From an uncultured cyanobacterium (GTDB lineage Bacteria; Cyanobacteriota; Cyanobacteriia; Cyanobacteriales; Nostocaceae): a stretch of 64,000 nt of DNA. Where the stretch lies: contig OY970166.1 in assembly GCA_963706595.1 (NCBI GenBank), positions 4,928,001 to 4,992,000 on the forward strand. Direction: 5' to 3'. The notes beneath the pieces are model-generated. The model saw only the letters and a list, made by a program, of their open reading frames with translations, had not been told where the DNA came from and ran no database searches. Below are positions 11,841 to 62,478 of the stretch, one piece after another. How positions within the stretch are numbered: the first letter of the stretch is position 1; every line of letters begins with the position of its first letter. Made by a program: the position numbers and the translations under genes.

Positions 11841-11938
11841 CCTGTACAGAACGGCATAATCAGACTTACACAAAAAAGCTCTCAAATTCTCATAACTCTG
11901 TGTACTTTGTGCCTCTGCGGTTCGTTTCTTCCTGACTT

Positions 11939-13317: not shown

Positions 13318-14295
13318 ATGAACCCCAGCATTACAGATTCAGCAGTTAAGGCGGCGATCGCAGCTATCGGATCAGAGTCAGCGACAGCAGCAGAGAAAAT
13401 CGAGATGCTGATCGAAATGGCACAAGGCTTTCATAAGCAGCCTAAAACCGCCCAAGATTTGCGGAACGCAGTGGGGCTATATTACCGAGCATATCAGATG
13501 TGTGGTGAGGAGTACGCCCTATTGAAAGCCCGCGCCTTGGTGGGGATGGCAGGGACGTTACAGAGTATTCCTGATCAAGGTTCTCAACTGCTGCTGCAAG
13601 CGAAAGCCAGTTATGAAGAGGCTTTGCCTATTTTACAACAATTAGCTTTGCCAGAAGAATTAGCCGAGGCACAGATGAATTTTGGGTTGGTGTTGCAGTC
13701 TTTAGTACCATTCAATTTGGCACGCATGACGGACAGTATCAAAGCTTATCATCAGGCTTTGGAGGTGTTTACCTGGGAGGATTACCCACAAGAATACGCA
13801 ATTTTATACAATAATATTGCGATCGCCTACCTTTCCATGCCCATGTCATCAGAACGGGAATATTTGCGTCAGGGTTTAGCAGTGCAGTCATTTGAAGTGG
13901 CATTAAAGCATATTAACTTAATTGACCATCCCAGGGAATATGCAATGTTACAGAACAACTTGGGTAACGCGTTGCAATATTTAGTCAGTTCCCATCCTGT
14001 AGATAATAACTTACGTGCGATCGCCGCTTATGACGAAGCCTTAAAAGTGCGTAACGCCAGAGACACACCCTTAGAATATGCTAACACCATATCTAACAAA
14101 GCTAACGCCTTATTCAACTTACCCGATGACCTCGAAAAACCAGAAGCTGGTAATCCTCAAAATCTGTTAAAAGCATATACCTACTATCAAGAAGCTTGGG
14201 GAATATTTACCCAAAATCAGCAAACAGCACAAGCAGAAGCCGTCGCCCAAGCCATACAAGATGTAGAAGTAGAAATGCGAGTAGGTATGGATTAG
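13318..14295 (+). CDS. TPR-repeat protein of the extended hyp operon
   Basis: Repeated EYA..NN.G.A helices; context. Confidence 0.8.
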   Translation: MNPSITDSAVKAAIAAIGSESATAAEKIEMLIEMAQGFHKQPKTAQDLRNAVGLYYRAYQMCGEEYALLKARALVGMAGTLQSIPDQGSQLLLQAKASYEEALPILQQLALPEELAEAQMNFGLVLQSLVPFNLARMTDSIKAYHQALEVFTWEDYPQEYAILYNNIAIAYLSMPMSSEREYLRQGLAVQSFEVALKHINLIDHPREYAMLQNNLGNALQYLVSSHPVDNNLRAIAAYDEALKVRNARDTPLEYANTISNKANALFNLPDDLEKPEAGNPQNLLKAYTYYQEAWGIFTQNQQTAQAEAVAQAIQDVEVEMRVGMD

Positions 14296-14327
14296 CCTGG
14301 CATTTTTCCCCTCATTTCATAACTACC

Positions 14328-14594
14328 ATGACAGAAATTTTGAACAACCCAGAAATCAGAGATTTTCTCACAAGTTTAGCAGCAGGTGAATTGAACATCG
14401 CCACAGAATTCGCCTGGATAGTCATAGCCACAGCCTTATCAATGATTAGTGGTGCTATTGGCGCAATGCTGTTAGCTGGGAAAGACATTGGTTATCAATT
14501 TGCAGCAACATTAGGCGCATTATTTGGACCGGCTGGTGTAATTCCCGCCATATTCTTAAGTTTTGCCGTACTAAAATTATTCACCAATTATTAG
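14328..14594 (+). CDS. Small membrane protein of the hyp region
   Basis: Two hydrophobic segments; ATG at 14328. Confidence 0.7.
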   Translation: MTEILNNPEIRDFLTSLAAGELNIATEFAWIVIATALSMISGAIGAMLLAGKDIGYQFAATLGALFGPAGVIPAIFLSFAVLKLFTNY

Positions 14595-14602
14595 GAGTAA
14601 TC

Positions 14603-14827
14603 ATGTTTGAAATTGCATGGCTTTCAGCGAAATTATTTTTCAAAGGAAAACTACTGCGCGATCGCAGATATTTTTTCAAACAAATTGTGATTGGTACAAG
14701 CATTGCTTCCATGATCATCCTATCATTATCGCAAACAAAATTACCCCTTTGGCTACCAATAACAGTATCTAGTTTAGTCACAGGTACAGTAATGCCATTT
14801 CTCCTCAAAGATTTCAAAATGAAATAG
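14603..14827 (+). CDS. Small membrane protein of the hyp region
   Basis: AGGAG RBS; two hydrophobic segments. Confidence 0.7.
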   Translation: MFEIAWLSAKLFFKGKLLRDRRYFFKQIVIGTSIASMIILSLSQTKLPLWLPITVSSLVTGTVMPFLLKDFKMK

Positions 14828-15021
14828 ATATCCTGACAGATAAACCTCCCAATTTAGTAAAAACATAGAATACCGACGCAAAAGACCTATTAAACCCTCT
14901 TACCTTGGCGTTCTTTGCGTCTAAAGCCCAGGGGGCATACGCTGCGCGTTAGCGGAGCTTCGCTTTAGCGATAGGCGGTTCGTTCTAAATTTATTTCCCA
15001 ACGAATAAAGACGAGATAATA

Positions 15022-15855
15022 ATGACAAAACTGGAAGAACTAATTCAAGAAATCAATCGATTTGAAGCAATAATAGCCCAATGGGATGAAAGCCAAAGAT
15101 GTGTAGCAGTAGGACTAAAAAGAGCCATCGAAGACTTACATAAAGCAGCACTAACACATTTAATCAAAAGCCTGAAACAAGAATCAATGTCAGCCTTGCG
15201 CCAAGCCGTAGACGATGAAATAGTATATTCAGTTTTGCTTTATCACGAACTAATTAAACCACCACAAGCACCATTAATAGAAAGAATTCAAACAGCCTTA
15301 GAAGAAGTGCGCCCAGGTTTAAAAAGCCATGATGGCGATGTAGAATTTATCGCCATTAAACCACCAGATACGGTCGAAGTTAAATTAATTGGAAGTTGTA
15401 GCAGTTGTCCGACTTCAACTTTAACTTTAACTCAGAGTGTAGAACAGGCAATAAAAAATCATTGTCCCGAAATTACTAAAGTTGTAGCAGTCAATCATAC
15501 TTCCACTGACAACAGTCCATTTACGCCAGAAGATACCTCTACTTGGGTTAAACTAACAACAATTGATCAAATTCCTGAATCTGGGATATTGACAGGTAAA
15601 GTTGGCAAAAATTCCTTAATTTTATATCGCCAAGGTGAAAATGTTACCTGTTATCTAAATGCTTGTCCACATTTAGCAACTCCCTTGGATATGGGGAAAT
15701 TAGATCATGGTATTCTAACTTGTAAATCGCATGGATTTCAGTATAACTTAGAAACTGGCGAATGTTTAACTGTTGCTGATGTCCCATTACAGTCATATCC
15801 AGTCCAAATTAAAGGTGAGAAAGTTTTTGTAAAATTGCCCAAATATTCAATTTAA
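15022..15855 (+). CDS. NifU-C domain fused to a Rieske ferredoxin domain
   Basis: VRPGLKSHDGDVE...GSCSSCP; CPH...CKSHG Rieske ligands. Confidence 0.85.
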   Translation: MTKLEELIQEINRFEAIIAQWDESQRCVAVGLKRAIEDLHKAALTHLIKSLKQESMSALRQAVDDEIVYSVLLYHELIKPPQAPLIERIQTALEEVRPGLKSHDGDVEFIAIKPPDTVEVKLIGSCSSCPTSTLTLTQSVEQAIKNHCPEITKVVAVNHTSTDNSPFTPEDTSTWVKLTTIDQIPESGILTGKVGKNSLILYRQGENVTCYLNACPHLATPLDMGKLDHGILTCKSHGFQYNLETGECLTVADVPLQSYPVQIKGEKVFVKLPKYSI

Positions 15856-15932
15856 TTGCAAAATTGCCACCATTGATACACGTTGATATCAGCCAATGAG
15901 TTTAAATAACGATCAGTGTTTATCTCCGGTTC

Positions 15933-17108
15933 ATGGATATACCCATAAATCTTAATCCTGCATTAGACTTATTACCTTTATTATCTGATAGTCCCAAAGT
16001 TATTTTAGGTAATATTCTTGAACCAGAAATATTAGCTATACCTATAGCACCTAGTCCGATAAATATGTTCGGTCCGCGTAGTGCTTGTTTATTATCTGAA
16101 ACAGGGTCTTTGTGGGTATCAGATACAGGACATCATCGATTATTGGGATGGCGAAATTTACCCACCAGAGATAGTCAACCGGCTGACTGGGTAATTGGAC
16201 AACCTGATTTTTATCATGAAGGTCAAAATGCTAAAGGTACACCAGGAAGAAATACTTTTAGTGTCCCCACATTAATTTGTGCTTGTGGTACAGGTTTAGC
16301 AGTAGCTGATGCTTGGAATCATCGGATATTGATTTGGAAAAATGTCCCAGAAGATAGTCATGTTCCAGCAGATTTGGTGTTAGGACAAGCTGATTTTAGC
16401 CAAAATGAACCAAATAGAGGAACTCATCAAGCTGCTGCTAATACTATGCACTGGCCTTATGGTGTTTTCTATCACCAAGGAAAGCTATTTGTCGCTGATA
16501 CGGGAAATCGCAGGTTATTAATTTGGCAGCAATTACCGACAGAAAATGGTCAACCGGCTGACTTAGTTTTGGGACAACCAGACATGATATCTCGCAACGA
16601 AAATGGGGGGAGTTCTCCGACTGCGGCGAGTATGCGTTGGTGTCATGATATTACTATTTGGGGAGACAATTTAGTTGTAGCTGATGCTGGTAATCACCGG
16701 GTGATGATTTGGGAGGGAATACCTACAGAAAATAATGCCCCTTGTGCGGTGGTTTTAGGACAAAAAAGTTTTGATTCTGTGGAAATGAATCAAGGTGTTT
16801 ATTTGCCTAGTGCTAGCAGTTTAAGTATGCCTTATGGTGTAGCGGTTGGTAATGATTGTTTGATGGTTGCTGATACTGCAAATTCTCGTTTGTTAGGATG
16901 GAGAAAGCCGGAGTCTCAATTTTTATCCGGGGCGGTTGCTGATGGTTTGGCGGGACAAGTTAGTTTTAAATCTAAGGGTGAAAATCGTGATTTTGGATTA
17001 CCTGGGCGAGATACTTTGAATTGGTGTTATGGGGTGAAGGTTTTTGGTGATGTGGCGATAATTGCTGATTCTGGGAATAATCGGGTTTTGTTGTGGGGTT
17101 TGGAGTAA
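15933..17108 (+). CDS. NHL-repeat protein of the hyp region
   Basis: Repeated VADxGNxR and ADLVLGQ motifs. Confidence 0.85.
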   Translation: MDIPINLNPALDLLPLLSDSPKVILGNILEPEILAIPIAPSPINMFGPRSACLLSETGSLWVSDTGHHRLLGWRNLPTRDSQPADWVIGQPDFYHEGQNAKGTPGRNTFSVPTLICACGTGLAVADAWNHRILIWKNVPEDSHVPADLVLGQADFSQNEPNRGTHQAAANTMHWPYGVFYHQGKLFVADTGNRRLLIWQQLPTENGQPADLVLGQPDMISRNENGGSSPTAASMRWCHDITIWGDNLVVADAGNHRVMIWEGIPTENNAPCAVVLGQKSFDSVEMNQGVYLPSASSLSMPYGVAVGNDCLMVADTANSRLLGWRKPESQFLSGAVADGLAGQVSFKSKGENRDFGLPGRDTLNWCYGVKVFGDVAIIADSGNNRVLLWGLE

Positions 17109-17150
17109 GAGGTGTTTCACGCAAAGGCGCAAAGACGCAAAGTAAGAAGA

Positions 17151-19494
17151 ATGGAAGAGATTCGGGTTCGGGGGACTGTTCAAGGTGTGGGATTTCGTCC
17201 TACTGTTTATCGTCTGGCTAAGGTTTGTGGTTTGTTTGGTGATGTTTGTAATGATGGAGAGGGTGTTTTAATTCGGGTTTCGGGGAGTGAGGCGGCTATT
17301 ACGGAGTTTATCAACAAACTATATATTGAATGTCCTCCTTTGGGGAAAATTCAGGAGTTGACGAGAGTTTGTTATGAAGGTGATGGGGATTTTACTGATT
17401 TTGTGATTTCTCGTAGTGTGAGTGGTTCTAAAAATACAGAAGTTACTCCTGATGCGGCGATTTGTCCCCAATGTCAACAGGAAATTTTTGACCCTTTTAG
17501 CCGTTTTTATCGTTACCCTTTTACTAATTGTACTCATTGCGGTCCTCGCTTCAGTATCATTCGTGGGATTCCTTACGATAGATGCAATACCAGTATGTCT
17601 GCGTTTGCTATGTGTGCTGAATGTGAAGGGGAGTATGAAAATGTAGAAAATCGCCGTTTTCACGCCCAACCTGTAGCTTGTCATACTTGCGGACCGAATG
17701 CTTGGTTAGAACGGGCTGATGGTAAACCTGTTACGGCTTCGATGTTTTCAATGATGGATGATGTTGATGCTGTTTGTACTCTGTTGCAAAAAGGCGAAAT
17801 TGTGGCTATTAAAGGGTTGGGTGGTATTCATCTAGCTTGTGACGCAACTCAAGAAGCTGCTGTACAAAAATTGCGTCAGCGTAAACGACGTTATCACAAA
17901 CCTTTGGCTTTAATGGCGCGAGATATAGGAGTAATTACAGAATATTGTACTGTTAATACAAAAGAAAAAGAATTATTAGCAAGTTCTGCTGCGCCTATTG
18001 TATTGTTACAGAAAAATCCTGAATGTCTAATTGCGCCTTCTGTTTCACCGGGACTAAATCATATCGGGTTTATGTTACCTTATACGCCTTTACATCATTT
18101 AATTTTGCGGCGGATGAATCGCCCGATTGTGTTGACGAGTGGGAATATTGCTGATGAACCACAATGTATTGATAATGGAGAAGCTAGAGAAAAGTTAGGT
18201 CATATTGCTGATTATTTTCTTTTGCATAATCGAGATATTGTGAATCGAGTAGATGATTCTGTTGTGCGGGTGATTGATAATCAAGTAAAAGTTATTCGCC
18301 GGGCTAGAGGATATGCACCAGCACCGATAATTTTACCACCTGGTTTTGAGAATGTAACGCCAATTTTAGCAATGGGTAGCGAGTTGAAAAATACCTTTTG
18401 TTTATTACGCGACAATGAAGCAATTCTTTCTCAACATTTGGGTGATTTAGAAAATGCTGCGGCTTTTCATGCTTATCAAGATACACTCAATTTATATTTA
18501 AATTTATTTGAGCATCAACCAGAGGCGATCGCTATTGATAAACACCCTGAATATCTTGCCACAAAACTCGGTAAAGAAATCGCATCTGTTAATAAACTTA
18601 AACTTCATCCTATCCAACATCATCACGCCCATATTGCTGCTTGTATGGCAGAAAATGGCATTCCTTTAGATTCTCCCCCAGTTTTAGGTATTGCTTTAGA
18701 TGGATTAGGTTATGGCGAAGATGGCAAATTTTGGGGAGGAGAATTTCTGTTAGCAGATTATCGAAAGTTTCAGCGCCTCGCAACATTTAAACCAGTGGCG
18801 ATGATTGGCGGTGAAAAAGCAATTTATCAGCCTTGGCGTAACACCTACGCCCACTTACTCAATGCTGATATTTGGGACGAATGCCAACAAAAATATTCTG
18901 AGTTGGAAATTATCAAATTTTTGCAACAACAGCCATTACAGGTACTTAAACAGGCTGTAGAAAAAGGAATTAACTCGCCGCTAGCCTCATCCGTAGGGAG
19001 GTTGTTTGATGCAGTAGCTGCGGCTATCGGCATTTATCCAGAAGAATGTAGCTATGAAGGACAGAGTGCGATCGCAATGGAAGCCTTAGTAAAACCTAGC
19101 AGCTTAAATAATTATGAAGAAACGCTAAATTATCCTTTTAATCTTAACTTTTCAGATAGCATTTATTATATAGACTCAAAACCAATGTGGCAAGCCCTGC
19201 TTCAAGACTTGCAAAAACAGATTAGTCAATCAGAGATAGCTACAAAATTCCATAAATGTTTAGCTCAAATTATTGTAAATGTAGTTAAACATCTTGCTCA
19301 AGAAAACCTGATTAATCAAGTTGTATTAACCGGAGGAGTATTTCAGAACTGTATTTTATTAACACAAGTTACTCAGGGCTTACAAAAGTTAGGACATAAA
19401 CGTAATAACTCACAGTTTACTACCCTCCAACGACGGCAACATATCACTAGGACAAGCAGTAATTACAGCCGCCCAATTAATCCCCAACTCTTAA
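17151..19494 (+). CDS. hypF: Carbamoyltransferase HypF with an apparent one-base insertion at 19394/19395
   Basis: GTVQGVGFRP, Zn fingers, QHHHAH; the normal C-terminus INVITHSLLPSNDGNISLGQA* lies in a shifted frame ending 19494. Confidence 0.9.
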
Positions 19495-19547
19495 TCTTCA
19501 CTCTGCGTTCTCTGCGCCTCTGTGGTTCGTTATATCCAGAAAAAAAA

Positions 19548-19808
19548 ATGTGCTTAGGAATCCCCGGACAAATAGTAGAAATCAGCGACATTAACCATAA
19601 ACTAGCCATAGTTAATATAGCTGGAGTCAAACGCCAAATAAACATAGCCTGCATAGTCAACGAACAACATCCCCCCGAAAAATGTATAGGAGATTGGGTA
19701 TTAGTTCACGTAGGCTTCGCCATGAATCGTATCAACGAACAAGAAGCAGCCGAAACATTAAAACTATTAGAAGAACTAGCAACAGCCCAAGCCCAAATAA
19801 CCAACTAA
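19548..19808 (+). CDS. hypC: Hydrogenase chaperone HypC
   Basis: MCLGIPGQI...GDWVLVHVGFAM. Confidence 0.93.
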   Translation: MCLGIPGQIVEISDINHKLAIVNIAGVKRQINIACIVNEQHPPEKCIGDWVLVHVGFAMNRINEQEAAETLKLLEELATAQAQITN

Positions 19809-19886
19809 AACTCCTCCTCCTCCTTGGCGTACTTGGCGACTTGGCGGTTCGTTTAAAACCCCCCTAAAAAAAAGCGAAAATACCCC

Positions 19887-21026
19887 ATGAAATACGTCAA
19901 CGAATTTCGAGAACCTGAAAAAGCCGCAGCCTTACGCAACCAAATAACCCAACTATGCGACCAACTAAAAAAACCCATAAAACTGATGGAAGTATGCGGT
20001 GGACATACCCATTCCATATTTAAATACGGTATAGAAGACATCCTACCCCCCAACCTAGAACTCATCCACGGGCCTGGTTGTCCAGTATGCGTCATGCCAA
20101 AAGGGAGATTAGACGATGCGATCGCCATATCCCAAAATCATAACGTCATTCTCGCCACATTTGGCGACACCATGAGAGTTCCCGGTTCCCATACCAACCT
20201 CCTGCAAGCCAAAGCCCAAGGCGCAGATATCCGCATGGTATACTCCCCCCTGGATAGCCTGCAAATCGCCAGAGACAACCCAGACAAAGAAATAGTCTTC
20301 TTCGCCCTCGGCTTTGAAACCACCGCCCCCAGTACCGCCCTCACCATATTGCAAGCAGCAGCCGAAAACATCACCAACTTTAGTATGTTTTCCAATCATG
20401 TTCTTGTTATACCAGCCCTTCAAGCCCTACTAGATAACCCAGATTTACAACTAGATGGATTTATTGGGCCTGGTCATGTCAGCATGGTAATTGGTACAGA
20501 ACCATATCAATTTATTGCCCAAAAATATGATAAACCCATAGTAATTTCCGGCTTTGAACCCTTAGATATCTTGCAATCAATTTGGATGATATTACAGCAG
20601 TTAGTAGAAAACCGTTGTGAAGTAGAAAACCAATATAACAGATTAGTAGAACCAGCCGGAAATTTAGTCGCATTGCAAGCCATGAACCAAGTATTTGCAG
20701 TGCGAGAAAAATTTGATTGGCGAGGCTTAGGTGAAATACCGGAATCAGGCTTAAAAATTCGGGCTGAATACGCCCAATTCGATGCCGAAAATAAATTTAT
20801 TATTCCTAACTTAAAAGTAGCAGACCATAAAGCTTGTAAATGTGGAGAAATTCTCAAAGGAGTCTTAAAACCTTGGGAATGTAAAGTATTTGGTACAGCT
20901 TGCACACCAGAAACACCCATTGGTAGCTGCATGGTTTCATCAGAAGGTGCGTGTGCAGCCTACTACAAATATGGACGACTTTCTGCAATTAGTAAAAAAG
21001 CCCAAAAATTAGCCACATCCAAATAA
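19887..21026 (+). CDS. hypD: Hydrogenase maturation protein HypD
   Basis: MEVCGGHTH, GPGCPVC, GFETT, PGHVS, CMVSSEGACAA. Confidence 0.96.
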   Translation: MKYVNEFREPEKAAALRNQITQLCDQLKKPIKLMEVCGGHTHSIFKYGIEDILPPNLELIHGPGCPVCVMPKGRLDDAIAISQNHNVILATFGDTMRVPGSHTNLLQAKAQGADIRMVYSPLDSLQIARDNPDKEIVFFALGFETTAPSTALTILQAAAENITNFSMFSNHVLVIPALQALLDNPDLQLDGFIGPGHVSMVIGTEPYQFIAQKYDKPIVISGFEPLDILQSIWMILQQLVENRCEVENQYNRLVEPAGNLVALQAMNQVFAVREKFDWRGLGEIPESGLKIRAEYAQFDAENKFIIPNLKVADHKACKCGEILKGVLKPWECKVFGTACTPETPIGSCMVSSEGACAAYYKYGRLSAISKKAQKLATSK

Positions 21027-21044
21027 CTATAACTATTCTCTAAC

Positions 21045-21082
21045 TCCCCTCCTCGCTTGCGGGGAGGGGCTGGGGGTGGGGT
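21045..21082. repeat. Hairpin plus G-tract dispersed repeat (relatives at ~22627, 40109, 44659)
   Basis: CCCCTCCTCGCTTGCGGGGAGGGG followed by G-runs; identical core at 40109. Confidence 0.6.
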
Positions 21083-21108
21083 GATTCACAAACTAGGAGA
21101 AAAAATAT

Positions 21109-21324
21109 ATGCCATTTATCACAGTCCAAATAGCCAAAGGTCACTCAGTCGAGAAAAAGCGCCAACTAGTCAAAGCACTAACCGAGACACTAATTGAAAC
21201 CTTGGGTGCTAAACCAGAATGGATAACCATACATATTGACGAATTTGAGCGAGAAAATTGGGCAGTTGGCGGTCAATTGCATATAGATAAACACAGTGGT
21301 AGACATAAAGAAAAAGGCATCTAA
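21109..21324 (+). CDS. 4-oxalocrotonate tautomerase family protein
   Basis: MPFITVQI...EKKRQLV...ENWAVGG. Confidence 0.88.
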   Translation: MPFITVQIAKGHSVEKKRQLVKALTETLIETLGAKPEWITIHIDEFERENWAVGGQLHIDKHSGRHKEKGI

Positions 21325-21381
21325 ACTTCCTCTTCCTCTCTTCCTTCGCTACCTTCGTTACTTCGTGGTTCGTTTTTTTAT

Positions 21382-22479
21382 ATGAATATTTCCCCCAAAC
21401 ATCAAACCCAAAATCCCCTACTACAAAAAATCGGCAAACCCCAAAAAAGTAAGGTGAGAGACACCCATATTACCCTCGCCCACGGTAGCGGAGGTAAAGC
21501 CATGCGCGATTTAATTGAAGATATTTTTGTAAATAGCTTTGATAATCCAATTCTCTCCCAATTAGAAGACCAAGCCAGTTTAAACTTAGCTAGTCTCAGC
21601 CAACAGGGAGATAGACTAGCTTTTACAACAGATTCTTACGTTGTAGACCCTTTATTTTTTCCCGGTAGTGATATTGGCGAATTAGCAATTAATGGCACTA
21701 TTAATGATTTAGCCGTCAGTGGGGCTAAACCTTTATATCTCACTTGTAGCGTTATTATAGAAGAAGGATTAGAAGTAGAAACTTTGCGGCGTGTCGTTGC
21801 TAGTATGAAATTAGCCGCCCAACAAACTGGCGTGCAAATTGTCACAGGTGACACAAAAGTTGTCCAACGTGGTGCTGCCGATAAACTATTTATTAATACT
21901 ACAGGTATTGGGGTAATTCCTCAAGGAATTAACATTTCATCCCATAATATCCAAGTGGGAGATGTGGTAATTATTAATGGCGAATTGGGAAATCATGGTG
22001 CAGCAATTTTAATCGCCCGTGGGGAATTAGCATTAGAAACTAATATCGAAAGTGACTGTCAACCTTTGCATAGTTTAGTAGAAAGTATCCTCAGCGTTTG
22101 TCCTGATGTTCATGCTATGCGCGATGCTACACGGGGCGGTTTAGCGACAGTTTTAAATGAGTTTTCTGTGAGTTCTGGTGTAGGTATTCGTCTCGATGAA
22201 GAATCTATCCCGGTGCGGGAAGAAGTTAAAGGAGTTTGTGAAATACTAGGTTTAGATCCTTTGTATTTGGCGAATGAAGGGAAGTTAGTGGTGGTGGTAG
22301 CTGGTGAGAATGCTGAAGTTGTTTTATCAGCTATGAAGTCACACTCAGCCGGGAAGGATGCTTGTGTTATTGGTGAGGTTATTGCTTCACCTGCGGGTGT
22401 GGTTTTGTTAAGAACTGCTTTTGGGACTGAACGTATTGTTGATATGTTGGTGGGTGAACAATTACCGAGGATTTGTTGA
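21382..22479 (+). CDS. hypE: Hydrogenase maturation protein HypE
   Basis: HGSGGK, TTDSYVV, MRDATRGG, terminal PRIC. Confidence 0.96.
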   Translation: MNISPKHQTQNPLLQKIGKPQKSKVRDTHITLAHGSGGKAMRDLIEDIFVNSFDNPILSQLEDQASLNLASLSQQGDRLAFTTDSYVVDPLFFPGSDIGELAINGTINDLAVSGAKPLYLTCSVIIEEGLEVETLRRVVASMKLAAQQTGVQIVTGDTKVVQRGAADKLFINTTGIGVIPQGINISSHNIQVGDVVIINGELGNHGAAILIARGELALETNIESDCQPLHSLVESILSVCPDVHAMRDATRGGLATVLNEFSVSSGVGIRLDEESIPVREEVKGVCEILGLDPLYLANEGKLVVVVAGENAEVVLSAMKSHSAGKDACVIGEVIASPAGVVLLRTAFGTERIVDMLVGEQLPRIC

Positions 22480-22688
22480 TTTTTTGGAATAACGAACCGC
22501 CAAGTCGCCAAGTACGCCAAGGAAGAGAGAATGATTATTTAGAGAATGTTTGAAAAGTATTGTTTATTACCCAAAAATTTTATAAACCTAACCGCCATTC
22601 CCTTGTAGGGAATGGGTGTTTCAAAGCCTCTCTCCTTGTAGGAGAGAGGTTTGGAGAGAGGTTTTTAGTATACTCAGCACTTAATTTT

Positions 22689-23018
22689 ATGCACGAATTA
22701 GGAATTACGCAAAATATTGTGGCTATTGTTAGTGAACACGCCCAAGGTGCAAAGGTTCAACGGGTGGTGTTAGAAATTGGTCAACTTTCGGCGATTTTAC
22801 CTGATGCTATTGAGTTCTGTTTTGATATCTGTACTCAAGGTACGGTTTTGGTGGGGGCGATATTAGAAATTAGGGAAATTCCTGGTTTAGCACGTTGTCG
22901 TGAATGTGGTGCAGAAATACATTTAAATAAACCTTTTGGTGTATGTGGCTGTGGTAGCGTGCAGTTAGACTTAATAGCTGGTGAAGAATTGAAAATTAAG
23001 GAAATCGAAATAGAGTAA
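22689..23018 (+). CDS. hypA: Nickel metallochaperone HypA
   Basis: MHELGI, CREC...CGC; true start at 22689. Confidence 0.93.
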   Translation: MHELGITQNIVAIVSEHAQGAKVQRVVLEIGQLSAILPDAIEFCFDICTQGTVLVGAILEIREIPGLARCRECGAEIHLNKPFGVCGCGSVQLDLIAGEELKIKEIEIE

Positions 23019-23020
23019 TT

Positions 23021-23872
23021 ATGTGTGTAACTTGCGGTTGTTCTGATGATGCTGAAAGCACAATTACTAATTTAGAAACTGGTGAGGTTGAACACAATCA
23101 GCATGATCATACTCACACTTTACCTGATGGGACTATAATCACTCATTCTCATAGTCATAACACTCAGCATGAAGCTTCTCAAGTTCATGCCAAAATACAT
23201 AATACAACAATATCTTTAGAACAAGATATTTTAGCGAAAAATAATTTGATAGCAGCCCAAAATCGGGGATGGTTTAAAGGACGCAATATTTTAGCTTTAA
23301 ATTTAATGAGTTCTCCTGGTTCGGGTAAAACAACTCTGTTAACTCGGACTATTCATGATTTAAAGCATCAGCTACCTATTAGTGTAATTGAAGGCGACCA
23401 AGAAACAGCTAATGATGCCGAAAAGATTAGGGAAACTGGCTGTAAAGTTGTGCAAATTAATACAGGTACTGGTTGTCATTTAGAAGCCTCTATGATTGAT
23501 AGGGGTTTACAGCAATTAAACCCGCCTCTCGATTCGGTGGTGATGATTGAAAATGTCGGAAATTTGGTTTGTCCGGCTTTGTTTGATTTGGGAGAACACG
23601 CTAAGGTGGTTATTCTCTCGGTAACTGAGGGAGAGGATAAGCCGATTAAATATCCCCATATATTTCGTGCTAGCGATATCATGATTTTGACTAAGGTTGA
23701 TTTGCTACCTTATGTGCAGTTTGATGTGCAGAAATGTATAGATTACGCCCGACAGGTGAATCCTCAAATTCAAATTTTTCAGGTTTCTGCTACTACTGGT
23801 GCTGGTTTAGAAAATTGGTATGGGTGGCTATATGCAAAAGTGGCTAATTTATCAATTCCGGTTTCTGTTTAA
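23021..23872 (+). CDS. hypB: Nickel incorporation GTPase HypB
   Basis: MCVTCGC, His-rich linker, SSPGSGKTT, ENVGNLVCP. Confidence 0.96.
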   Translation: MCVTCGCSDDAESTITNLETGEVEHNQHDHTHTLPDGTIITHSHSHNTQHEASQVHAKIHNTTISLEQDILAKNNLIAAQNRGWFKGRNILALNLMSSPGSGKTTLLTRTIHDLKHQLPISVIEGDQETANDAEKIRETGCKVVQINTGTGCHLEASMIDRGLQQLNPPLDSVVMIENVGNLVCPALFDLGEHAKVVILSVTEGEDKPIKYPHIFRASDIMILTKVDLLPYVQFDVQKCIDYARQVNPQIQIFQVSATTGAGLENWYGWLYAKVANLSIPVSV

Positions 23873-47820: not shown

Positions 47821-48154
47821 GGAGTGACCCTTGAACGGAATACGATGGATTTAAAACTTACCATGCTTTCGCTGATTTTTTATGGAAGAGATTACGAGGG
47901 TTTTATGATACTTTTTTTACCTCGTTCTAGTGAATACATCGGTGAGTCATCAAGTGGATGATTCTGCCAGAGTAGATTGCTGAAGTAATAAGCTTGTATT
48001 GTAATATTTGCTGATTATTAATTTTAATTTTTCAGTATATTTTCTATTTTGTTAGCGTAAGGGTACTATAAGAAATTTGTATAAATTAGTTTTAGGATTT
48101 TTTAACGCAGAGGGGCGCGGAGGTAAGCGCAAAGGTACGCAGAGGTTTTTGTAT

Positions 48155-50366: not shown

Positions 50367-52073
50367 TTATTTCTCCATAGTGGTAACTTTGTATTCTCCA
50401 GCCCTTTCTTCCTGTTCTGGTACAGGCTTAGTTTCTGGAACTACTGGAGACTCACTGGGAGATAATTTAAATTTTGGCAACTGTCGCGGGTTGAAATATC
50501 TTTTTAATGACGGTTTTTCAGGGTCGGGAGCAATTTTTGTGGGTAACGGTATTGATTCACCTGTTGGCGTTTCCTCTGGTTGTTCTTTCTGTGTAGGTGA
50601 CTCACTAGATTTTGGCGTTTCTGGTTTAGCTAATTTTTCCGGTGCTTCAACTTGAGGTGTGGGAATGATCTCAGGTTCTGCTTCTGATGCAGGTGATTCA
50701 ATAATTTCTGGTAGTGTCGGGGGTAAACTTGTTGACGGTTCAGTTGTCGAGACTGAACGACGTTGGAAAAATCCCTCAAATTTTGGCGTTTCTGGTTTAG
50801 CTACTTTTTCTTCCGGTGTTTCAATTTGAGGTGTGGGAATGATTTCAGGTTCTGCTTCTGATGCAGGTGACTCAATAATCTCTGGTAATGTCGGGGGTAA
50901 ACTCGGTGACGGTTCTATTGTCGGGACTGCACGACGTTTGAAGAATCCCTCAGACTTTGATGTTTCGTTTGCTTCAACTTGGGGTGTCGGTTTTACGGGT
51001 GTTTCTGGAACTTCAGTTTTAGGAATAATCTGAGGCTGTGATTCTGGTGTTGTTTCAACGCTGGGGGTAGGTGTAGGTTCAACTACTGGTTTCTTCGCAG
51101 TGTAATTGGGGTCTACAATACTACGCACCTGATCCGCCTTCAATTCTCCTCTAACAATTCTCGAAAGTGTGTCTTTACCCTGGGGCTGATAATTAATCAG
51201 TCTGGCTGTGGTATTAAAGGCATTTTTTAGAGGATTTCCCTGATTATCGAGAAATTCTAGTTTTACCCAGTTGTTACCGGGTTTGAAGCCCTTGAGGTAA
51301 ATTGGTTGCCAACGATCCAAAATGAAGCTTTCATTATTAATTGTGCAACGAATGCGCCAATCGCTGAACGTATCGTTAGGGTTGTCTTCAGCTACTAGGC
51401 GCAGAGGCGCGTTAGTTAAATAAAAGTCCAGTAAAATTGGTTCTGCACCGTAACTGCCTTTAGGACGGCTGTAAGTTAGTACAGGCAGAGTAGGATCAGG
51501 GTTATTGTCCTCAGTCTTAGTGAAAATATGAAATGTTGTCTGGGCGTAAGCACCTTCATTTTTAAAGCTTTCGTGCCAAGGACGAGAAGCAAAAACGCGT
51601 AGGGTATGTGTACCAGGAGAAACTTCTGGTAAAACTAGAGGTTTATTTACATCGTACACAGCTATATAAGGTTGGTTATCGAGAATTACGTGTAAATGAG
51701 GCCCTAATTCCAATTCAGGATCTTTAAATATTGGTATATCCTTGACCCGAAAGCTGACTGTAACTGTACTGTCTTGGAGGACTTCATCAGGTTGGGGAGA
51801 TAGGATTGTCACCTGTGGCCGATAATTTTCTAAGGTGAGGCGCAGTTCCTGGATGACCTCTGGTGGGGATACTTCGGAAAATTGCTGAGAAATTTGAGAA
51901 ATTTTGGGCGGGTTATTTCTTTGGCTAAAAGGTACTTCTTGACTACCAGCTTTTTCACCACAACTGGTTAGACTCAATACCAGCACCAATGTCATCAGCC
52001 ACTTAAAAATATTAAATTTCAGAGAAAATATTTGCTTTAGCACCCCTGGCTGCCACGATTTCATGCATTTCAT
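50367..52073 (-). CDS. Putative lipoprotein with a Pro/Glu-rich repeated C-terminus
   Basis: Lipobox-like LVLSLTSC; duplicated SLPPTLPEIIESPASEAEPEIIPTPQ. Confidence 0.75.
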   Translation of the reverse strand: MKCMKSWQPGVLKQIFSLKFNIFKWLMTLVLVLSLTSCGEKAGSQEVPFSQRNNPPKISQISQQFSEVSPPEVIQELRLTLENYRPQVTILSPQPDEVLQDSTVTVSFRVKDIPIFKDPELELGPHLHVILDNQPYIAVYDVNKPLVLPEVSPGTHTLRVFASRPWHESFKNEGAYAQTTFHIFTKTEDNNPDPTLPVLTYSRPKGSYGAEPILLDFYLTNAPLRLVAEDNPNDTFSDWRIRCTINNESFILDRWQPIYLKGFKPGNNWVKLEFLDNQGNPLKNAFNTTARLINYQPQGKDTLSRIVRGELKADQVRSIVDPNYTAKKPVVEPTPTPSVETTPESQPQIIPKTEVPETPVKPTPQVEANETSKSEGFFKRRAVPTIEPSPSLPPTLPEIIESPASEAEPEIIPTPQIETPEEKVAKPETPKFEGFFQRRSVSTTEPSTSLPPTLPEIIESPASEAEPEIIPTPQVEAPEKLAKPETPKSSESPTQKEQPEETPTGESIPLPTKIAPDPEKPSLKRYFNPRQLPKFKLSPSESPVVPETKPVPEQEERAGEYKVTTMEK

Positions 52074-61939: not shown

Positions 61940-62281
61940 ATGTCTTCTGATAAATCTTCTAACAAACGCTTTGTTTACCGTGAATTTGGTAATGATAACT
62001 CTGCGGCTACCCAAAGAGGGGTTCCGGAATTACCTCCGCAGCAACAAAACCTGAAGGTGGAGGCTTCGCGCAAAGGACGCAAGGGTAAAACTGTGACTGT
62101 GATTAGCGGTTTCCAAACTAAGCCAGAAACTTTGGCTGATTTAGTTAAACAGTTGAAAAGTCAATGCGGTTCTGGTGGGACTGTGAAAGATAATGAAATT
62201 GAAATTCAGGGCGAGCATAAACAGAAAATTTTGGATATTTTGACTAAGTTAGGTTACAAAGCCAAAATTAGCGGGGGTTGA
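61940..62281 (+). CDS. Translation initiation factor SUI1/YciH family protein
   Basis: RKGRKGKTVTVI, LKSQCGSGGTVK, IEIQGEH. Confidence 0.9.
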   Translation: MSSDKSSNKRFVYREFGNDNSAATQRGVPELPPQQQNLKVEASRKGRKGKTVTVISGFQTKPETLADLVKQLKSQCGSGGTVKDNEIEIQGEHKQKILDILTKLGYKAKISGG

Positions 62282-62478
62282 TGGGTACGGTTTACAACAC
62301 TTGAATGTGGGATTAATTTAATAAGCTGATGTTATTGTGGGAATTACGAACCGCCAAGATGCCAAGAGCGCCAAGATAAAAAAGATGAATTTTTTACTAG
62401 CAATTTAGGAATGCTGTATGGTGGTGGTGAAATAATAAGTTAATCGGTTGATTTTTTGGAGTTTTATAGGAGGTTAAT

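Follow-up and report, generated by a model that had tools for sequence, protein, structure and literature searches.

Short intergenic repeats built on the unit CTTTGCG lie at the centres of patches of strand-biased base composition in the genome of an uncultured cyanobacterium of the Nostocaceae. The genome is a single contig of 5.57 Mb, and the stretch analysed here, which we call the window, comprises 64,000 nucleotides of it (G000:C1:4928001-4992000; positions without prefix are counted within the window) and carries an operon of hyp genes interspersed with such repeats. From base composition and from substitutions among related genomes, we show that a resident repeat, once it has been in place for long, lowers the gain of G and T on the CTTTGCG strand across a patch of about 1 kb that extends to both sides. 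The same repeats bracket genes of the GxxExxY family elsewhere in the genome, and a nick made there by the encoded protein is our candidate origin of the patch.

Composition was scored at the four-fold degenerate sites of 4,052 open reading frames of at least 100 amino acids, called by a simple script. We define the halo of a repeat as the G+T excess at four-fold sites 30-500 or 30-600 bp away, read on the strand that carries CTTTGCG; a negative value denotes an A/C shift on the repeat's own strand.

An orientation-dependent halo around CTTTGCG repeats

In an unbiased scan of 36,481 intergenic 8-mers, the top predictor of oriented skew was CCTTTGCG (n=143, z -14), followed by other words of the same repeat and then by words of a second hairpin family. 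Isolated CT(T/C)(T/G)GCG tandem repeats were A/C-shifted at silent sites on their own strand in 188 of 227 cases, with a mean of -0.116, a value reached in none of 20,000 orientation permutations (permutation standard deviation 0.011). Leaving out the window's own copies gave 182 of 220. In the surroundings of 210 copies, A+C rose from 0.485/0.516 to 0.68-0.73 within 150 bp, on both sides of the repeat and in genes of either strand. The shift kept the same sign on both sides, decayed with lengths of 502 bp upstream and 399 bp downstream, and was gone by about 1.5 kb. Scoring on both sides was possible for 112 of the 148 strictly solitary copies, and 69 of the 112 were shifted on both, against one in four expected by chance. 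Thus the local, orientation-dependent skew that a sequence-only reading of the window had proposed holds when keto skew is related genome-wide to the orientation and distance of each repeat.

Each of the four gene contexts and each fifth of the chromosome had the halo, and it was lost when repeats opposed one another: around ten inverted pairs less than 150 bp apart the two orientations cancelled (-0.003/-0.015). The effect is local and repeat-directed, and independent of gene direction and of replication position, as that reading had argued. Transcription direction is excluded as a cause by the presence of the halo in every gene context. Replication direction is likewise excluded, there being no large-scale or replichore skew and the autocorrelation falling from 0.29 at 1 kb to 0.007 at 4 kb. 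Chance and the codon bias of gene ends were ruled out by the permutations and by baselines that took account of position in the gene.

The skew was correlated in GC and TA and was strongest at third codon positions, where G+T near repeats moved from 0.40 to 0.65. Amino-acid usage moved as well, in both directions, with Ile, His, Thr and Pro up or Val and Gly down. Selection on messenger RNA or on codons near the repeat could concentrate a signal at third positions and leave spacers only weakly affected, as seen here. It would, however, need opposite codon preferences according to repeat orientation, even for divergent genes transcribed away from the repeat, where the halo is -0.127/-0.126 (n=17), and the amino-acid changes in both directions also speak against it. 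We give selection of this kind very little credence.

The palindrome HIP1 (GCGATCGC), with 4,324 sites in the genome, has a skew of its own. It is a mirror image: on each strand G is in excess 5' of the site and C in excess 3' of it, by a difference of 0.083 (jackknife error 0.005) at 12-150 bp and 0.039 at 800-1500 bp, with shifted positions and control palindromes near zero. This skew is mainly one of G and C, unlike the halo of the CTTTGCG repeat, and is weaker in the relative G021 (0.025, error about 0.010). HIP1 was discarded as the source of the halo, since the coefficient of the repeat was unchanged (-0.227) when both were fitted.

Modelled repeats and HIP1 together lowered the variance of z from 2.53 to 2.05 and so explain only part of the genome's patchiness. 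Among the 146 most skewed 500-bp windows, 50 have no known repeat within 1.5 kb (for example G000:C1:939500 and 4578500-4579500). Far from known repeats, the 6-mers TAGCCG, CCGTAG, GCCGTA and CGTAGC lead the list of oriented-skew words (z about -9); they are possibly a repetitive coding family or a third element.

Cause and consequence among relatives

In the hyp operon of nine congeners the repeats keep their junctions and orientation while the repeat variant changes, and all nine keep the halos. In the relative G021, the copies at hypE/hypA and at nifU are absent, and so are their two halos. Genome G019 has a reversed copy after hypD together with a reversed halo, and the hyp regions of G012 and G018 are flat. 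Orthologues without the repeat, which the sequence-only reading had singled out as the place to look, are flat or reversed in genera that lack it. Copies in other genomes replicate the halo in their own surroundings (21 of 25 in G004, 7 of 8 in G021). It is weak at the hyp loci of ten other genera (9 of 13 copies, -0.045).

The strength of the halo follows the age of the insertion. In a set of 115 intergenic gaps that could be aligned in three or more relatives, scored with a wide pattern that includes weak variants and some chance matches, copies fixed among congeners averaged -0.203 (19 of 19 shifted), polymorphic copies -0.134 (9 of 10) and copies found in a single genome -0.031 (10 of 16, standard error 0.025). 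Copies with shared, recently amplified flanks had a halo of -0.057, compared with -0.133 for other copies. Taken with the lineage comparison below, these data make us highly confident that the repeat causes the halo.

The opposite order of events would have repeats inserting, matched in orientation, into patches that were already skewed. This would accommodate the compositional halo of -0.115 that lineages without the repeat still have at polymorphic sites, a residue that also fits slow decay after loss, as well as the extreme windows with no repeat nearby. But it fails to predict that single-genome insertions lack a halo or that genera without the repeat have orthologues with a flat or reversed skew, and it is largely refuted by the absence of the rate bias from lineages without the repeat. 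We regard reverse causation as highly improbable.

Fewer changes to G and T near the repeat

The substitution spectrum was drawn from 13 regions of 20 kb and the hyp region, with singleton changes polarised among up to nine congeners and compared with baselines that allowed for the orientation of the gene and for how far the site lay from its ends. On the CTTTGCG strand, changes to G or T were observed against expected at 109/187 within 200 bp, 343/395 at 200-500 bp and 411/522 at 500-1000 bp. Changes to A or C stood at 112/110, 297/290 and 461/448 over the same intervals. The deficit of changes to G/T within 200 bp corresponds to a ratio of 0.58 (0.48-0.70); the three ratios, 0.58, 0.87 and 0.79, are not monotonic with distance, and the counts are modest. 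In total, 221 changes fell within 200 bp where 297 were expected, and pairwise divergence was lower near repeats (0.096 vs 0.117).

At 15 polymorphic sites, after correction for lineage rates, changes to G/T numbered 52 against an expected 94 in lineages with the repeat and 75 against 74 in those without it (p=0.0006). Fixed sites gave 104/182 and single-genome copies 37/28. The suppression is thus confined to lineages that carry the repeat, which argues that the repeat acts on current rates, and does so by holding changes back.

This spectrum bears directly on the mechanism that the sequence-only reading had favoured, namely local hypermutation in which the CGCAAAG strand, left as single-stranded DNA, undergoes additional deamination with C>T and A>G changes. 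Such a process agrees with the direction of the composition, and it predicts raised G>A and T>C on the CTTTGCG strand together with higher divergence. Instead, within 500 bp the sum of G>A and T>C was 139, compared with an expected 127 (ratio 1.09, with a 95% interval of 0.92-1.29), the total of changes and the divergence were both reduced, and changes to G/T were in deficit. Transversion pairs shifted too, and the changes had no deaminase-like neighbour preference. Survivor bias could mask an excess, as constrained codons among the remaining G/T sites may hide a moderate one, and the small rise of C>A and T>A (1.2-1.35) on the CTTTGCG strand could reflect damage to the other strand. We nevertheless consider deamination improbable. 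A reading as oxidative damage was dropped: C>A, raised 2.2-2.7-fold in a first spectrum, fell to 1.2-1.35 with more data and stratified baselines.

The repeat and the GxxExxY gene

Three GxxExxY genes occur in the genome, all outside the window, with PF13366 scores of 125-137 bits (cut-off 22) and a TIGR04256 score of 142.5 bits (cut-off 35). One of them, G000:C1:4632015-4632362, is bracketed in inverted orientation by exact copies of the repeats found at 22493 and 19823 of the window. The second is bracketed by another variant of the repeat. The third (G000:C1:2885260-2885607) sits in a different, mostly direct array of AATCCGTG type with a tandem of about 62 bp upstream, and is A/C-rich throughout, with 4 of 116 codons ending in G. 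The repeats are best explained as lone arms of the inverted arrays found on either side of GxxExxY genes. Isolated copies account for 235 of 267, there are 11 inverted pairs within 150 bp, and three repeat arms folded at only -2 to -3 kcal/mol.

Inverted copies bracket 24 of 30 cyanobacterial GxxExxY loci, and in 29 of the 30 the four-fold sites of the gene itself run from G/T-rich (mean 0.68) to A/C-rich (0.34). Over 41 genomes, whose kin are not independent, at least 30 repeat matches were present in 24 of 26 with a strong GxxExxY match and in 3 of 15 without one. The exceptions are G034 and G038, whose genes have a GTG variant missed by our pattern, and G012, G026 and G036.

The protein is predicted, from its modelled structure, to be nuclease-like with a PD-(D/E)XK fold. 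The model has a predicted local distance difference test score (pLDDT) of 95.5, and its fold matches include Cas4 SSO0001 as the best (Z 8.0, root-mean-square deviation 3.9, 101 residues aligned), BpuSI and other nucleases, with no single standout; residues D67, E77 and K79 are invariant in 26 sequences. A sequence search of the PDB with the protein gave no match. The sequence-only reading had suggested looking for co-occurring HUH nucleases, helicases or deaminases: a nuclease-like gene is indeed tied to the repeat, of the PD-(D/E)XK GxxExxY type and not HUH, though no search for HUH, helicase or deaminase genes was made.

Small passenger inserts accompany the repeats. Copies of three insert cores lie beside these repeats in 15 of 15, 13 of 18 and 14 of 19 cases, at fixed junctions. 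Nested small inserts at fixed junctions are found at 14923-14973 of the window and at about 50 other sites. They would fit repeated opening of the DNA at the repeat.

A second association of the same kind involves CCCCTCCTCGCTT hairpins, of which about 160 are dispersed in the genome and one lies at about 21046-21082 of the window. They bracket a DUF559 gene (G000:C1:3384627-3384947). Their halo, also two-sided, is weaker (-0.055), with 87 of the 124 copies distant from the CTTTGCG family being shifted. STRR-type heptamers, GTAG-type palindromes and two other hairpin families had no halo or nearly none.

These comparisons bear on whether a host protein, such as a helicase or a repair or replication factor, reads the repeat while the GxxExxY gene merely spreads it. 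The halo depends on host lineage, and the unrelated hairpins around the DUF559 gene have one too. The mirror-image skew of HIP1 further indicates that host machinery makes such footprints in these genomes. Yet the single words TTTGCG or CTTGCG far from repeats have no halo, and the lack of one around other abundant repeats indicates that the effect tracks families linked to nuclease genes. A host reader of this kind seems to us quite unlikely.

The hyp region of the window

Between 14 and 24 kb the window carries an asr0689-like gene, a NifU-like gene, an NHL-like repeat gene, hypF, hypC, hypD, a tautomerase gene, hypE, hypA and hypB. This is the gene order of the extended hyp operon of Nostoc PCC 7120 as given in the available text of PMC2408588; the intergenic-repeat table of that paper, in the portion available, has no repeat of CTTTGCG type. 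The NHL-like repeat gene had no NCBIfam match and takes its name from a 186-nt repeat period and from the gene order in the same portion of PMC2408588.

The repeats lie where the sequence-only reading had placed them and in the orientations it gave. On the plus strand, 14903-14982 is a CTTGGCG variant with a halo of -0.32; its passenger insert, at a recurrent junction, is about 51 bp long. A minus-strand repeat of three CTTTGCG units with a GTGA tail follows at 17117-17142 (halo -0.34), and its orientation is the same in eight of nine congeners, G005 being the exception, and in G021. Back on the plus strand, a CTCTGCG variant with a GGTTCG tail at 19501-19529 (-0.22) is present in nine of nine congeners. 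The plus-strand copy at 19823-19851 (-0.28) and the minus-strand copy at 22493-22521 (-0.27) are identical to those downstream and upstream, respectively, of the GxxExxY gene at G000:C1:4632015-4632362; the hypE/hypA copy that G021 lacks is the one at 22493. A degenerate plus-strand copy with CTTCG units and a GGTTCG tail lies at 21344-21372.

Four patches of plus-strand composition surround these copies. A/C-rich halos span 14000-15400, covering the end of an upstream gene of 335 amino acids, the asr0689-like gene and the start of the NifU-like gene, and 19300-21600, covering the end of hypF, hypC, hypD, the tautomerase gene and the start of hypE. G/T-rich halos span 16500-17900, over the end of the NHL-like repeat gene and the start of hypF, and 22100-23872, over the end of hypE, hypA and hypB. 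The halo at 16500-17900 ranks 14 by skew among the genome's 17,045 overlapping 500-bp windows. An additive model of six copies, each signed by orientation and decaying over 450 bp, fits the skew profile at 14.3-24 kb (r=0.86, 28 bins).

Within the genes, a recount bore out to the digit the hand counts made earlier: hypC (19548-19808, plus strand), counted over 19548-19805, has 72 of 86 codons ending in A or C, its only G-ending codons being ATG, TGG and ATG, and the first 50 codons of hypF (17151-19494, plus strand) end in T 30 times, G 15 times, A five times and C never. Four-fold G+T falls from 0.91 to 0.42 along hypF and rises from 0.28 to 0.78 along hypE (21382-22479, plus strand), the opposite courses that had been noticed. 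The other plus-strand genes are those for the NifU-like/Rieske protein, a host gene (15022-15855), hypD (19887-21026), the 4-oxalocrotonate tautomerase family gene (21109-21324), hypA (22689-23018) and hypB (23021-23872). At 19394-19395 the assembly has one base more in hypF than 10 of 10 aligned relatives, and the open reading frame reads through the repeat into hypC; the extra base is either an assembly error or a recent frameshift. Among sequencing runs, none proved to contain this strain (best share 0.27).

Elsewhere in the window, two minus-strand copies at 62069-62375, one at 62069 and a degenerate one at 62346, lie in a G/T halo. The sequence-only reading had taken this site for a weak one, which it is not, as the copy at 62069 scores -0.29. 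Its naming of two copies as lacking a halo was borne out: a CTCTGTG-type copy on the plus strand (11896-11925) scores +0.13 and an intact copy on the minus strand (48106-48144), where no relative aligned, +0.05. A strong G/T block at 50500-51000 (GC skew +0.25, AT skew -0.36 over all bases) has no CTTTGCG-family repeat near it; it probably results from amino-acid content, as four-fold sites there shift little.

A possible repair mechanism and the evidence against it

The majority of lesions and misinsertions appear as a G or T in the strand that bears them, and on this basis the CTTTGCG strand would be the corrected one. The GxxExxY nuclease might bind the repeat and nick this strand. The nick could then serve as a fixed strand signal for host excision repair by MutS and MutL without MutH, with excision running in both directions and declining within some hundred bases. 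Removal would more often reach the errors and lesions of the nicked strand, which for the most part read as G or T there; the strand would drift to A/C, in the manner of a lagging strand, and total divergence would fall. Binding, nicking, the choice of strand and the repair route are all inferred, and we give a GxxExxY nick that directs two-way host mismatch repair almost an even chance of being the mechanism. The MutL domain PF01119 is encoded in 13 of 13 genomes, and cyanobacteria have MutS and MutL and lack MutH according to the consulted parts of Elhai 2015 (PMC4390886), which also state that repair in E. coli fades about 1000 nt from the strand signal.

Two other kinds of event were discarded. 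If a double-strand break with resection or a two-way origin were at work, the sign should change across a solitary repeat, where no flip is seen; a promoter or nick translation would give a one-sided effect, and the halo is two-sided. The same sign on both sides fits a one-strand nick that directs two-way excision.

Several observations weigh against this nick-directed reading. GxxExxY loci from many phyla (80, of which 74 were parsed and scored) had no flank halo; in the 40 bracketed by the repeat, the values were -0.004 on the left (n=36) and -0.011 on the right (n=36). Flips inside the gene were weak across phyla (25 of 40; G+T 0.59 vs 0.50), strong flips being confined mainly to cyanobacteria and one Polyangiaceae record. 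Thus cassette plus repeat is not sufficient, and the halo needs a suitable host or long residence. In this genome, 39 of the 227 isolated copies carry the wrong sign; the variants CTYTGTG (-0.021) and ATCTGYG (-0.006), found on either side of GxxExxY genes in relatives, are nearly or wholly without a halo; and the 8-9-bp GTGA type has a full halo yet flanks none of the three GxxExxY genes. Present rates predict an equilibrium A+C of 0.63 vs the 0.79 seen, with 98 changes away from A/C vs 40 towards it, and the regions sampled for the spectrum were picked for high repeat density. The main unexplained point is the weak signal in intergenic DNA, which shifts in the same direction by about one third as much (G+T 0.40-0.49; 0.43 near strong halos) and has no clear suppression in its spectrum (170/174 unmasked; 107/124 masked, interval 0.71-1.05).

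Two single records may be set beside these. In the Polyangiaceae record (L516), four-fold G+T of the GxxExxY gene runs from 0.81 to 0.11, the strongest case outside cyanobacteria. The hyp region of genome G011 (L047) goes against the sign rule, being A/C-rich in all hyp genes beside C-rich repeats of CCCCGCGTCCCC type.

The weak intergenic shift favours either fast turnover of spacers or biased gene conversion. In the latter, a nick or strand invasion at the repeat would form heteroduplex with a sister chromosome or incoming DNA, and mismatches would be resolved to A/C on the CTTTGCG strand. Since biased conversion requires homology and has the effect of weak selection, conserved coding DNA is favoured, which accounts for coding sites shifting more than indel-rich spacers. 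By our arithmetic, a bias strength of about 1 gives both the ratio of 0.58 and an equilibrium A+C near 0.73, and the turnover of repeat variants at the same sites among congeners and the passenger inserts at fixed junctions also agree with it. However, under such a bias changes from G/T to A/C should be about 1.6 times more numerous, where the counts are 40 vs 40 within 200 bp and 205 vs 188 within 500 bp, an excess that constraint on the remaining G/T sites could partly hide. We judge gene conversion unlikely.

Returning to the nick-directed reading, its broadest form would have GxxExxY, and probably DUF559, selfish cassettes seed hundreds of permanent nick sites that replace the missing MutH signal and create kilobase zones in which one strand is preferentially proofread and divergence falls. 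This is possible, on the doubtful side; if true, it would provide the first defined cis trigger for skew like that of GRINS (see below), assign a function to a large family of orphan nucleases and offer a possible benefit through which the repeats are able to persist.

Comparison with known systems

The repeat-directed two-sided skew is real and probably undescribed in print. Our literature search found no description of GxxExxY with repeats or of repeat-directed skew, most subscription journals and supplements lying outside it. What is added here is the two-sided halo at single arms, its growth with the age of the insertion, the comparison of lineages with and without the repeat, and a substitution spectrum that is protective. 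An intergenic word of about 30 bp sets the direction of substitution in neighbouring essential genes. The halo bears on strand choice for repair in cyanobacteria without MutH, and it confounds analyses of codon bias and selection in these genomes.

In bacterial chromosomes the leading and lagging strands differ, one being G+T-rich and the other A+C-rich. The halo is unlike this skew in its scale of about 1 kb, in the lack of a replichore component, in an autocorrelation gone by 4 kb and in having no sign flip at the site. The passenger inserts resemble the small dispersed repeats (SDR) of the Nostocales, which Elhai and co-workers reportedly described in 2008 along with STRR, as small elements nested inside tandem repeats.

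Like REP/REPIN sequences with their RAYT transposases, which occur as hundreds of short extragenic repeats with copies beside the cognate enzyme gene (Bertels and Rainey 2011, PMC3116915, as far as available), the CTTTGCG repeats are dispersed in extragenic space and flank an enzyme gene. They differ in that the bracketed gene is GxxExxY, with a predicted PD-(D/E)XK fold, and not a tyrosine transposase (no search for RAYT genes was made), in being mostly single, non-hairpin arms, and in having a flanking skew, which the available parts of PMC3116915 do not describe for REP/RAYT.

Nick-directed mismatch repair, by MutH at GATC in E. coli or in the GmeC-directed form that Elhai proposed for cyanobacteria (PMC4390886, in part), shares with our reading a sequence-anchored strand signal acting over about 1 kb, and a two-sided effect of mismatch repair figures in the title of Bruni et al. 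1988, cited there. Unlike the MutH/GATC signal, ours would not mark the new strand but be fixed to one strand by an asymmetric repeat, and for that reason leave a lasting compositional footprint.

The closest likeness in composition is to GRINS (2021, PMC8256042, in the sections consulted), kilobase patches of correlated GC and TA skew that are strongest at third positions, take both signs on one strand, shift Gly/Val vs Pro/Thr/His and are of unknown mechanism. The repeat halos have the same intense, correlated skew with third positions foremost. GRINS are duplicated coding regions, for which those sections name no cis motif, whereas the patches here occupy single-copy genes, with centre and sign set by an intergenic repeat of about 30 bp. 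A search of the genome with 17100-22600 returned one long match, itself, and within 13-24 kb there is no long direct repeat of the GRINS kind, solely NHL-like units and short repeats. A type of skew that in GRINS has no known cause is, around these repeats, anchored at a defined site, follows a rule for its sign, has a measured range and comes with a candidate enzyme.

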